Below are positions 1 to 12,000 of a stretch of DNA of 64,000 bases, in pieces. The position numbers were made by a program. Source of the stretch: Escherichia coli (GTDB lineage Bacteria > Pseudomonadota > Gammaproteobacteria > Enterobacterales > Enterobacteriaceae); assembly GCF_013315695.1 (NCBI RefSeq), contig NZ_CP054353.1; one strand, given 5' to 3'. Numbering within the stretch: the stretch's first letter is position 1; each line of letters starts with the position of its first letter.

Positions 1-3000
1 TATTACAACTCCCCTTCACTGTTCAAAAACCGTGAACGCGTCCCCGCAAAAGGTTATATCAGCGATCAGTTAACCGATGAGGCAATTGGCGTTGTTGATC
101 GTGCTAAAACACTTGACCAGCCTTTTATGCTTTACCTGGCTTATAATGCTCCGCACCTGCCAAATGATAATCCTGCACCGGAGCAATATCAGAAGCAATT
201 TAATACCGGTAGTCAAACAGCAGATAACTACTACGCTTCCGTTTATTCTGTTGATCAGGGTGTAAAACGCATTCTCGAACAACTGAAGAAAAACGGACAG
301 TATGACAATACTATTATTCTCTTTACCTCCGATAATGGTGCGGTTATCGATGGTCCTCTGCCGCTGAACGGGGCGCAAAAAGGCTATAAGAGTCAGACCT
401 ATCCTGGCGGTACTCACACCCCAATGTTTATGTGGTGGAAAGGAAAACTTCAACCCGGTAATTATGACAAGCTGATTTCCGCAATGGATTTCTACCCGAC
501 AGCTCTTGATGCAGCCGATATCAGCATTCCAAAAGACCTTAAGCTGGATGGCGTTTCCTTGCTGCCGTGGTTGCAAGATAAGAAACAAGGCGAGCCACAT
601 AAAAATCTGACCTGGATAACCTCTTATTCTCACTGGTTTGACGAGGAAAATATTCCCTTCTGGGATAATTACCACAAATTTGTCCGCCATCAGTCAGACG
701 ATTACCCGCATAACCCCAACACCGAGGATTTAAGCCAATTCTCTTATACGGTGAGAAATAACGATTATTCGCTAGTCTATACAGTAGAAAACAATCAGTT
801 AGGTCTATACAAACTGACGGATCTACAGCAAAAAGATAACCTTGCCGCCGCCAATCCGCAGGTCGTTAAAGAGATGCAAGGCGTGGTAAGAGAGTTTATC
901 GACAGCAGCCAACCACCACTTAGCGAGGTAAATCAGGAGAAGTTTAACAATATCAAGAAAGCACTAAGCGAAGCGAAATAACTAAACCTTCATGCGGCGG
1001 ATTTTTCCGCCGCCTTATTGAGCGAGATAGCGATGCACGTTACAGCCAAGCCCTCCAGTTTTCAATGTAATCTCAAATGTGATTACTGTTTTTACCTTGA
1101 AAAAGAGTCGCAGTTTACTCATGAAAAATGGATGGATGACAGCACTCTGAAAGAGTTCATCAAACAATATATCGCAGCGTCTGGCAATCAGGTCTATTTT
1201 ACCTGGCAAGGCGGTGAACCCACTCTGGCTGGCCTGGATTTTTTCCGTAAAGTTATTCACTATCAACAACGCTATGCAGGCCAAAAACGTATTTTTAATG
1301 CATTACAAACGAATGGCATTTTATTGAATAATGAATGGTGTGCCTTTCTCAAAGAACATGAGTTTCTGGTTGGTATCTCGATCGATGGACCCCAGGAGCT
1401 ACATGACCGTTACAGACGCAGTAATTCAGGTAACGGTACTTTTGCAAAAGTGATAGCAGCCATCGAGCGTCTGAAATCATATCAAGTAGAGTTTAATACG
1501 TTAACCGTCATTAATAACGTTAATGTCCATTACCCTCTTGAGGTTTATCATTTTTTAAAATCTATCGGCAGTAAACATATGCAATTTATCGAATTGCTAG
1601 AAACCGGGACGCCGAATATTGATTTCAGTGGTCATAGTGAGAACACATTCCGTATCATTGATTTTTCTGTGCCTCCCACGGCTTATGGCAAGTTTATGTC
1701 AACCATTTTTATGCAATGGGTTAAAAACGATGTGGGTGAAATTTTCATCCGTCAGTTTGAAAGCTTTGTCAGCCGTTTTTTGGGGAATGGGCATACCAGT
1801 TGTATTTTCCAGGAATCCTGCAAGGATAATCTGGTTGTTGAAAGTAATGGAGATATTTACGAATGCGATCATTTTGTCTATCCACAGTACAAAATTGGAA
1901 ACATTAATAAATCTGAACTCAAAACGATGAACAGTGTTCAACTGACAGCGCAAAAAAAACGGATTTCAGCGAAATGTCAGCAATGTGCATATAAACCTAT
2001 CTGCAATGGTGGTTGCCCTAAGCATCGTATTACTAAAGTAAACAATGAGACTGTTTCCTATTTTTGCGAAGGTTATAAAATCCTTTTTTCAACCATGGTA
2101 CCTTATATGAACGCCATGGTGGAGTTAGCTAAGAACAGAGTACCGCTTTACCACATTATGGATGTTGCAAAACAAATGGAGAATAATTATTAACGCTCCC
2201 CCTTAGCTCCATTCTTAGCCTCCTTCTTATGACCTTAACAAGGCACCCGACATAAATTCCTGTCGGGTGTTTCGTCTTCATCATCTTCCTTTGCGAAAAT
2301 CCTGGCTTACGAGGTATGCGTCAGGGCATTAGCAATACCCTTGATTATCAATAGCATAACCATAACCACTGAAAATGAATATTTCTTTATATTTCATATT
2401 GTTAAATGATACTTAAATAAATTTCATCAGTATATCATTGCCATAGATAATCATTGGATGGCACAATCAATTTTCGCTAATGATAACCATTCCCATTACG
2501 TTTTGTATGTTGATAGCAAAGTATCTCTGTCTGCTGAAGCCCTTTTGGCTGCGTAAGAATAATAAAACTTCAGTGTTGTTAATCATTATTATCCTCGCCA
2601 TGATCCTTGGCGTGGTTAAAATTCAGGTCTGGTTAAACGACTGGAATAATGATTTTTTCAATGCGCTAAGCCAGAAAGAAACTGATAAGCTTTGGCAGCT
2701 TGTCCTTTGGTTCCCTGCCCTGCTGGGGATCTTTGTATTAATATCCGTAAACAAAACATGGTTAATTAAACTACTGACTATTCGCTGGCGCGAATGGTTA
2801 ACAGATTACTACCTTAATCGCTGGTTTGCAGATAAAAACTACTACTTCACGCAGATCTACGGCGAGCATAAAAATACAGATAACCCTGACCAACGTATCG
2901 CTGAAGACATTCTCTTACTGATCAGCAAAACGCTCAGTCTTTCATTTGGCTTCATCCAGTCACTTAGCATGCTGATCACCTTTACCGTTATTCTTTGGCA

Positions 3001-9000: not shown

Positions 9001-12000
9001 TAATATTCGTGAACAGGCATCAGGAGCATACAGCGTTTCTTCTCGCCTCTCGGTTGATCCTCAGGCCAAAGATATCAGTCATTTGCTGGCTTTTACTTGT
9101 CAACCAGAACGACATGATGAACTGTTAACGTTAGCGAATGAAGTGATGGTTAAGCGTCTGGCTAAAGGGATCAGTGAGCAAGAACTGAACGAATACCAGC
9201 AAAACGTTCAGCGCAGCCTCGATATTCAACAGCGTAGCGTTCAACAATTAGCGAACACTATTGTAAATAGTCTTATTCAATATGACGATCCTGCAGCATG
9301 GACTGAGCAGGAGCAATTATTGAAACAAATGACGGTAGAGAATGTTAACACTGCCGTTAAACAATATCTTTCTCATCCGGTGAATACCTATACCGGAGTA
9401 TTATTGCCAAAATAATAACAGCCCCGTCAACACCTCGTTGGCGGGGATTTTAGCAATATTCGCCATTTTTATGTAATAATTTTATAAATGCGTTCAAAAT
9501 AATAGCCGAGTGCTAATAGTGATATTTTAAGGTCTGATTTTTACGTGATAATTCAGGAGGCGTAGAAAGTGCATAAAAATAACAGCATAAAACACCTTTC
9601 CACCCCCCAAGAATTCAATAATATATTGATTTTCAATGATAAAATATAATTCGCATAATATCTCGCGATAAATAACATTAGGATTTTGTTATTTAAACAC
9701 GAGTCCTTTGCACTTGCTTACTTTATCGATAAATCCTACTTTTTTAATGCGATCCAATCATTTTAAGGAGTTTAAAATGGATAAGAAGCAAGTAACGGAT
9801 TTAAGGTCGGAACTACTCGATTCACGTTTTGGTGCAAAGTCTATTTCCACTATCGCAGAATCAAAACGTTTTCCGCTGCACGAAATGCGCGACGATGTCG
9901 CATTTCAGATTATCAATGACGAATTATATCTTGATGGCAACGCTCGTCAGAACCTGGCCACTTTCTGCCAGACCTGGGACGACGAAAATGTCCACAAGTT
10001 GATGGATTTATCCATTAACAAAAACTGGATCGACAAAGAAGAATATCCGCAATCTGCAGCCATCGACCTGCGTTGCGTAAACATGGTTGCCGATCTGTGG
10101 CATGCGCCTGCACCGAAAAATGGTCAGGCCGTTGGCACCAACACCATTGGTTCTTCCGAGGCCTGTATGCTTGGCGGGATGGCGATGAAATGGCGTTGGC
10201 GCAAGCGTATGGAAGCTGCAGGCAAACCAACGGATAAACCAAACCTGGTGTGCGGTCCGGTGCAAATCTGCTGGCATAAATTCGCCCGCTACTGGGATGT
10301 GGAGCTGCGTGAGATCCCTATGCGCCCCGGTCAGTTGTTTATGGACCCGAAACGCATGATTGAAGCCTGCGACGAAAACACCATCGGCGTGGTGCCGACT
10401 TTTGGCGTGACCTACACCGGTAACTATGAGTTCCCGCAGCCGCTGCACGATGCGCTGGATAAATTCCAGGCCGACACCGGTATCGACATCGACATGCACA
10501 TCGACGCTGCCAGCGGGGGCTTCCTGGCACCGTTCGTCGCCCCGGATATCGTCTGGGACTTCCGCCTGCCGCGTGTGAAATCGATCAGTGCTTCAGGCCA
10601 TAAATTCGGTCTGGCTCCGCTGGGCTGCGGCTGGGTTATCTGGCGTGATGAAGAAGCGCTGCCGCAGGAACTGGTGTTCAACGTTGACTATCTCGGTGGT
10701 CAGATTGGGACTTTCGCCATCAACTTCTCCCGCCCGGCGGGTCAGGTGATTGCACAGTACTATGAATTCCTGCGCCTCGGTCGTGAAGGCTATACCAAAG
10801 TACAGAACGCTTCCTACCAGGTTGCCGCTTATCTGGCGGATGAAATCGCCAAACTGGGGCCGTATGAATTCATCTGTACCGGTCGCCCGGACGAAGGCAT
10901 CCCGGCGGTTTGCTTCAAACTGAAAGATGGTGAAGACCCGGGATACACCCTGTATGACCTCTCTGAACGTCTGCGTCTGCGCGGCTGGCAGGTTCCGGCC
11001 TTCACTCTCGGCGGTGAAGCCACCGACATCGTGGTGATGCGCATTATGTGTCGTCGCGGCTTCGAAATGGACTTTGCTGAACTGTTGCTGGAAGACTACA
11101 AAGCCTCCCTGAAATATCTCAGCGACCACCCGAAACTGCAGGGTATTGCCCAGCAGAACAGCTTTAAACACACCTGATAACGTTTAACGGTAACGGTGTC
11201 CCGAAACGAAGCCGTTTCGGGACAATTTCCAAAGTCTGTTCACTGGCATTAGCAACGGAAAATATTGTTCTGAATACGCTTCAGAACAAAACAGGTGCGG
11301 TTCCGACAGGAATACCGTTTTAGGGGGATAATATGGCTACATCAGTACAGACAGGTAAAGCTAAGCAGCTCACATTACTCGGATTTTTTGCCATAACGGC
11401 ATCGATGGTAATGGCTGTTTATGAATACCCTACCTTCGCAACATCGGGCTTTTCATTAGTCTTCTTCCTGCTATTAGGCGGGATTTTATGGTTTATTCCC
11501 GTGGGACTTTGTGCTGCGGAAATGGCTACCGTCGACGGCTGGGAAGAAGGTGGCGTCTTCGCCTGGGTATCAAATACTCTGGGGCCGAGATGGGGATTTG
11601 CAGCGATCTCATTTGGCTATCTGCAAATCGCCATTGGTTTTATTCCGATGCTCTATTTCGTGTTAGGGGCACTCTCCTACATCCTGAAATGGCCAGCTCT
11701 GAATGAAGACCCCATTACCAAAACTATTGCAGCACTCATCATTCTTTGGGCGCTGGCATTAACGCAGTTTGGTGGCACGAAATACACGGCGCGAATTGCT
11801 AAAGTTGGCTTCTTCGCCGGTATCCTGTTACCTGCATTTATTTTGATCGCATTAGCGGCTATTTATCTGCACTCCGGTGCCCCCGTTGCTATCGAAATGG
11901 ATGCGAAGACCTTCTTCCCTGACTTCTCTAAAGTGGGCACCCTAGTTGTATTTGTTGCCTTCATTTTGAGTTATATGGGCGTTGAAGCTTCCGCAACCCA

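Follow-up and report, generated by a model that had tools for sequence, protein, structure and literature searches.

We analyzed a 64,000-nucleotide stretch of the Escherichia coli chromosome (NCBI RefSeq assembly GCF_013315695.1, contig NZ_CP054353.1; hereafter the window), and we concentrate here on the five genes at its start. These are ydeN and ydeM, for a sulfatase and its maturase, and yddA, yddB and pqqL, for an import system. Over its first 12 kb, the window matches strain MSB1_4I at 100% identity and nearly every complete E. coli genome at 95–99%. The list of open reading frames (ORFs) and the RefSeq annotation of the identical MSB1_4I region place all five genes on the plus strand. 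A first-pass annotation, made from the sequence alone, had described five co-oriented genes under these names; each was confirmed at its coordinates, with ydeN cut by the window start, and the gene identifications were borne out, as the family assignments and the catalytic motifs hold. Our reading of their neighborhood, which we consider highly probable, is that ydeN-ydeM and yddA-yddB-pqqL are two autonomous cassettes, brought side by side by genome history and not by function. The features of the region are as follows.

1–981, plus strand: ydeN, 3' part only, the C-terminal 326 of 560 codons (RefSeq annotation); the first 701 bp of the gene fall outside the window
994–1013, plus strand: GC-rich intercistronic hairpin (GCGGCGGA-UUUU-UCCGCCGC) in the spacer from the ydeN stop codon to the ydeM start codon; folding free energy (dG) −18.7 kcal/mol, z −3.1
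1033–2193, plus strand: ydeM, anaerobic sulfatase-maturing radical-SAM/SPASM enzyme (ORF list and RefSeq)
2238–2275, plus strand: terminator-like hairpin at the end of ydeNM; 12-bp stem, dG −19.6 kcal/mol, z −6.4, with 0 of 200 shuffles folding as well
2438–2467, plus strand: sigma-70 promoter-like site (TTGCCA, 18 nt, TG-CACAAT); 9 of 12 consensus matches and an extended −10 TG, a consensus match only
2476–2494, plus strand: Fur box overlapping the yddA start codon; 15 of 19 consensus positions, joint best of the 64-kb window
2480–4165, plus strand: yddA, inner-membrane ATP-binding cassette (ABC) transporter, FusD homologue
4203–6575, plus strand: yddB, TonB-dependent outer-membrane transporter, FusA clade
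6632–9415, plus strand: pqqL, periplasmic M16 metalloprotease, FusC homologue; alternative upstream ATG at 6620

The spacers between successive genes measure 51 bp (ydeN-ydeM), 286 bp (ydeM-yddA), 37 bp (yddA-yddB) and 56 bp (yddB-pqqL). At least 13 annotated genes, from ydeP through ddpX, run on one strand, with a 41-codon antisense ORF as the sole exception. Because the strand is shared by so many neighboring genes, the common orientation of the five is uninformative.

The sulfatase pair and the import operon

YdeN carries the Ser-type sulfatase motif SGPSR, of the (C/S)xPxR type, with S132 of the full protein at its head. Its N-terminus (MKSALKK...AFAAHAA) reads, by inspection, as a Sec-type signal peptide. 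The protein matches the Pfam Sulfatase and NCBIfam sulfatase models, and among solved structures it comes closest to glycan sulfatases of family S1_19 (3e-52). These features predict that YdeN is a periplasmic Ser-type S1 sulfatase. As the motif is of the Ser type, a radical-SAM maturase is needed. YdeM, at 505 bits, exceeds the cut-off of 349 for TIGR03942, the equivalog for anaerobic sulfatase maturases. It has CNLKCDYC at residue 12 as its radical-SAM CxxxCxxC motif and, towards the C-terminus, a Cys-rich SPASM motif. The two genes form a bicistronic operon, in which the cytoplasmic YdeM would turn Ser132 of the SGPSR motif into formylglycine before Sec-type export of YdeN. Once in the periplasm, YdeN would hydrolyze sulfate esters, most probably those of sugars.

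The closest familiar parallel is the Klebsiella AtsA/AtsB type of Ser sulfatase with its anaerobic sulfatase-maturing enzyme (anSME). YdeN shares the SxPxR motif with Ser, YdeM is likewise a radical-SAM and SPASM protein above the anSME equivalog cut-off (TIGR03942), and ydeN and ydeM are likewise adjacent, an adjacency that is kept across genera. The pair differs from that type in its relatives and in its control: the best solved relatives of YdeN are S1_19 carrageenan sulfatases and a GalNAc-6-sulfatase, not the arylsulfatase AtsA, and the AraC and GadX control of ydeN is specific to E. coli.

A hairpin in the sulfatase-maturase spacer is found not only in E. coli but also in Yersinia pestis, Aeromonas, Leminorella and Iodobacter, with z from −3.1 to −5.1 for the set including E. 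coli; the Salmonella hairpin is weaker (z −1.4). The structure is kept across these genera while the sequences differ. The hairpin may act as an attenuator or as an mRNA-end stabilizer that sets the ratio of enzyme to maturase, and it would probably keep sulfatase output above maturase output. Its coordinates in the related loci are given here.

L084: spacer hairpin at 9672–9728
L085: spacer hairpin at 9681–9737
L086: spacer hairpin at 9681–9738
L089: spacer hairpin at 9681–9729
L090: spacer hairpin at 9672–9740

Some E. coli genomes hold a second YdeN-like sulfatase of 565 amino acids and 77% identity, in a cluster of 303 sequences (L087, 3847–5544). A porin gene precedes it, short ORFs and an IS110 transposase follow it, and its maturase appears degraded or absent. 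A porin gene also lies upstream of an Aeromonas ydeNM locus.

The three genes downstream of ydeM belong to another family of systems. YddB matches the chain of PDB entry 6OFR over residues 30–790 (E 0, 1,727 bits), and its only other solved match is the ferredoxin receptor FusA (4ZGV, 5e-80). PqqL matches chains of 6OFS and 6OFT, and FusC (6B03) at 4.4e-59; it has an N-terminal signal sequence and an intact HxxEH motif, HFVEH at residue 76. The best solved relative of YddA is Rv1819c (PDB 6TQE; residues 35–552, 8.9e-68). Besides a Walker A motif, YddA has an ATPase joined to a membrane domain of the SbmA/BacA type with the exporter fold, and its E. fergusonii orthologue matches Pfam PF05992, PF06472 and PF00005. 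Rv1819c is an exporter-fold ABC protein that imports hydrophilic compounds. With Rv1819c of Mycobacterium tuberculosis and with SbmA/BacA, YddA shares the SbmA_BacA, ABC_membrane_2 and ATPase domains, whereas its own cargo, which would be a peptide, a cofactor or an iron species, is suggested by operon position only. The first-pass calls of an exporter-type ABC transporter, a TonB-dependent receptor and a periplasmic M16 protease are supported by these structure matches and motifs.

YddB and PqqL have been characterized as analogues of FusA and FusC, with structures 6OFR and 6OFS (Grinter 2019, PMC6793856), so the statement in the first-pass annotation that the pair is FusA/FusC-like was correct, and the matches of YddB to 4ZGV and of PqqL to 6B03 agree with it. 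The Fus-like nature of the operon is thus published knowledge. Table S1 of the same work enters the E. coli operon in the order D/A/C, and YddA is therefore the FusD homologue. PqqL was shown there to be periplasmic, and it cleaved neither plant or human ferredoxins nor globins (PMC6793856). The three genes are co-transcribed by reverse-transcription PCR, derepressed in a fur mutant and induced more than 30-fold in urine, and the operon has a fitness role in bacteraemia (Subashchandrabose 2013, PMC3855560).

Architecture and regulation of the operon are established by these data, and homology proposes a route through it: YddB would bring a protein substrate across the outer membrane, PqqL would cleave the imported protein in the periplasm, and YddA, as a FusD homologue resembling Rv1819c, would probably carry a product across the inner membrane. 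The likeness to the Pectobacterium Fus system and other protease-associated import systems lies in the homology of YddA, YddB and PqqL to FusD, FusA and FusC and in Fur regulation. The E. coli cluster differs from Pectobacterium in that it has no FusB gene: we found no dedicated TonB homologue in the cluster, and the interval from ydeM to gadB holds just three genes. FusB is not universal in the wider family (PMC6793856). The order D-A-C also differs from that of most relatives, which have A-D-C or A-C-D. No member system of the Fus family includes a sulfatase, and the word "sulfatase" does not occur in the supplement text of Grinter 2019 that was searched (PMC6793856).

The ydeM-yddA junction and regulation

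Between the two gene units lie the hairpin, the promoter-like site and the Fur box listed above. The hairpin at 2238–2275 has an interrupted U-rich tail, on account of which a generic terminator scan missed it, and direct folding was used instead. Over positions 1–10000 the generic scan returned promoter-like and terminator-like sites in numbers at the level of shuffled sequence. The terminator that the first-pass annotation had placed after ydeM is real as a structure; it is intrinsic-terminator-like, and termination is the function that its fold predicts. A search against Rfam gave no match in 1–9415. The 41-codon antisense ORF (2156–2281, minus strand) overlies the 3' end of ydeM and this hairpin; here it is listed as hypothetical, and K-12-like records name it "protein YneP".

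The Fur box over the yddA ATG is the same site as that proposed in PMC3855560. A strict scan of the window for the 19-bp Fur consensus with at most 3 mismatches gave no match, and the published site emerged only with a graded consensus score. A second Fur-box-like site of equal score (15 of 19) lies at 57508–57526, in the spacer that separates the divergent genes yncE and pqqU, of which the latter (yncD) encodes a TonB-dependent receptor; the annotation of yncE with Fur in PMC4145685 agrees with it. The terminator-like hairpin, the 286-bp spacer and a separate Fur-box promoter divide ydeNM from yddAB-pqqL.

Fur-like boxes scoring 14–16 of 19 also stand upstream of import clusters in Escherichia species, an Enterobacteriaceae metagenome-assembled genome (MAG), Orbaceae, Gilliamella and Shewanella. 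A score of at least 14 was reached by 9 of 35 related import clusters, compared with 4.4% of background windows. Upstream of ydeN and its five orthologues, the best Fur score was 11–12 of 19, which is background level.

The sulfatase pair answers to other regulators. PMC10878103, citing Stringer 2014, describes co-transcription of ydeN with ydeM, direct targeting of ydeN by AraC and high expression of ydeMN when araC is mutated; in PMC3738151, AraC is bound upstream of ydeN in the presence of arabinose only. When GadX occupies the ydeN promoter, the ydeN transcript declines (PMC4918353), and ydeN falls by 5 log2 units at pH 4.4 (PMC10746267). A scan for the AraC half-site (TAGC-N7-TCCATA, at most 2 mismatches) gave 18 matches against 19.5 expected, none of them in the ydeO-ydeN spacer. 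The AraC control of ydeN is therefore taken from the literature only.

No change of the ydd genes along with ydeN is reported in PMC4918353, PMC10746267, PMC10878103 or PMC3738151. Serum induces yddA, yddB and pqqL, and a Fur box is given at yddA, in a study that leaves ydeN and ydeM unmentioned (PMC4145685); the Fur study (PMC3855560) mentions neither gene. Our literature search found no paper naming both ydeN and yddA. The co-regulation that a shared locus would imply is contradicted by these results: regulation is separate, with AraC and GadX at the ydeN promoter and Fur at yddAB-pqqL, and the terminator-like hairpin and the Fur-box promoter lie between.

Distribution of the two units

An alignment of YddB relatives was scanned against one genome per species, which gave 80 loci with 10-kb flanks, 76 of them outside Escherichia. 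Among these 76, a YddA relative is present in 34, a PqqL relative in 34 and both in 32, while a relative of YdeN or YdeM is found in none within 10 kb, even at E≤1. The two nearest YddB relatives are those of an Enterobacteriaceae MAG (61%) and of an Orbaceae genome (45%); in both genomes the three import genes stand alone among housekeeping genes, flanked by btsR and pdxJ in the former and by ubiX and asnA in the latter. On one metagenomic contig they adjoin a transposase gene. Proteus and Yersinia species with a Fus-like cluster have no sulfatase beside it. A 70%-identical YddB relative also occurs on a contig of E. coli O146 (L092, 10001–12364), among IS66, IS110 and a phage capsid gene; it has no YddA relative upstream, and the contig ends after the gene. 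It could be a mobile second copy.

The sulfatase pair has its own distribution. YdeN orthologues of 70–84% identity are widespread. Those of Y. pestis, Salmonella, Aeromonas, Leminorella and Iodobacter share 74–84% identity, and the maturase gene always follows 49–69 bp downstream. The flanks of ydeNM in these five genera are mutually unrelated; some hold integrase, relaxase or transposase genes, and none holds a TonB-dependent transporter, an M16 protease or an SbmA-type ABC transporter. We found no genome outside Escherichia in which ydeNM and yddAB-pqqL are adjacent. The pair is apparently a mobile, widely shared two-gene cassette with a conserved intercistronic hairpin.

Within E. coli the two cassettes are adjacent in about 85% of genomes, and here too they part. 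At a coverage of at least 80%, ydeNM is present in 5,322 of 5,426 complete genomes and yddAB-pqqL in 4,603. Two distinct deletions, corresponding to window positions 2203–8498 and 2299–8252, remove yddA, yddB and most of pqqL (its 5' part), and junction queries place such deletions in 726 of the 5,426 genomes (about 13%). The second type accounts for 160 genomes, including the adherent-invasive E. coli strains LF82 and NRG 857C. The first junction query counted both types, and the first type comes to about 566 by subtraction of the type-2 count. In both deletion examples examined (n=2), ydeN and ydeM are annotated as intact.

The converse loss is seen as well. In one Escherichia lineage ydeO is joined to yddA and about 45 bp of the ydeM 3' end are left, which indicates a deletion of ydeNM. 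Escherichia sp. E1V33 has yddAB-pqqL without ydeNM, its yddA being immediately preceded by lsr genes and an ISNCY transposase, and E. fergusonii has yddAB-pqqL-gadBC without ydeNM. A check of gene-neighborhood conservation, which the first-pass annotation had proposed for its idea of a shared locus, thus turned out against it: the sulfatase pair is absent from all 76 related import loci, it stands alone in five genera, and each unit has been lost separately in Escherichia.

Function, history and remaining features of the window

One coincidence may bear on where the cassettes came from. Leminorella grimontii and the Enterobacteriaceae MAG share speE-speD-tyrA-aroF-btsR synteny at 72–77% nucleotide identity (L089, 6143–10902; L008/L094, 7196–15450). 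Downstream of btsR, Leminorella has ydeN-ydeM after two small genes, and the MAG has yddA-yddB-pqqL directly. Leminorella is also the source of the nearest YdeN outside Escherichia (84%), and the MAG of one of the two nearest YddB proteins (61%). Both cassettes are low in GC content (0.39–0.47, versus 0.49 for the window), so GC content does not separate them.

Several points weigh against the reading of two autonomous cassettes. The btsR coincidence could be an insertion hot spot, chance or the trace of an old common island; it has no bearing on present function. The low GC of both cassettes and their frequent adjacency in E. coli make a common acquisition possible. Some read-through from ydeM into yddA may occur, co-transcription having been judged from sequence and published transcription units. 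Finally, a substrate shared by YdeN and YddB/PqqL is biochemically conceivable.

The first of these points leads to a linkage that is historical, without shared function: a Budviciaceae-like donor would have passed the cassettes to the Escherichia ancestor, either jointly or into one and the same variable slot, and they would later have decayed independently. The nearest YdeN and a near YddB do come from organisms that share local synteny, a cassette sits just downstream of btsR in both, both cassettes are low in GC, and mobile-element genes flank both in some genomes. The shared slot is nevertheless a single genome pair, for which a hot spot or chance would suffice; adjacent cassettes occur in no genome found outside Escherichia; and YdeN is 74–84% identical between genera versus at most 61% for YddB, which argues for different transfer histories. 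We consider such a history unlikely.

Less can be said for the proposal of the first-pass annotation that the five genes are one functional locus for a host-derived sulfated or protein substrate, in which the sulfatase would act on what YddB imports and PqqL cleaves. Bacteroides polysaccharide utilization loci combine SusC-type TonB-dependent transporters, sulfatases and anSME, so that loci joining a sulfatase to a TonB-dependent transporter do exist. There, outer-membrane uptake is coupled to the desulfation of host glycans, the kind of system that the proposal resembles; the B. thetaiotaomicron work is cited in PMC10878103. The E. coli genes are moreover adjacent and co-oriented in about 85% of genomes, and YdeN, YddB and PqqL, with their signal peptides, all belong to the cell envelope. 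The likeness ends there. Unlike in Bacteroides, the sulfatase pair and the transporter are neither co-transcribed, as judged from sequence and published units, nor co-regulated or co-conserved. YddB falls in the FusA clade and not with SusC, and the cluster has no SusD, glycoside hydrolase or hybrid sensor.

A terminator-like hairpin and a Fur-box promoter of its own set yddA apart from ydeM, the regulators of the two units differ, no paper was found to name both ydeN and yddA, the 76 related import loci have neither sulfatase nor maturase, ydeNM occurs by itself in five further genera, Escherichia lineages have lost either unit while keeping its neighbor, and the co-orientation spans at least 13 genes. 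Independent regulation and an absence of co-conservation are what the first-pass annotation itself had named as evidence contrary to its proposal. A common locus and function for ydeNM and the import cluster are, in our view, very improbable.

We would dismiss, as extremely improbable, the idea that a Budviciaceae-like donor once carried both cassettes as a single mobile island and that they continue to act together on a host-derived substrate (YdeN might, for example, desulfate a sulfated glycoprotein for capture by YddB and cleavage by PqqL), the separate promoters and independent losses being secondary; all that speaks for it is that the cassettes adjoin in E. coli and that Leminorella and the MAG share the btsR slot. 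Were a sulfatase link true, it would point to the substrate of the orphan YddB/PqqL system, a contributor to the bacteraemia fitness of uropathogenic E. coli, and would make this the first proteobacterial system to couple desulfation to TonB-dependent protein import. As the link is unsupported, the neighboring sulfatase should not steer the search for the YddB/PqqL substrate. The reading of two autonomous cassettes is the one that we retain.

Elsewhere in the window, the Rfam search returned a single match, a selenocysteine insertion sequence (SECIS_3, 84 bits) at 32864–32922 on the minus strand, within fdnG, the gene for the selenoprotein alpha subunit of formate dehydrogenase-N. Three copies of IS1A lie at about 14,490–15,190, 51,030–51,730 and 59,820–60,520. 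Of these, one cuts dosP short, with dosC absent from the annotation, another interrupts an alkyl/aryl-sulfatase gene of the metallo-beta-lactamase (MBL) fold, and a further one lies between mcbR and pqqU.

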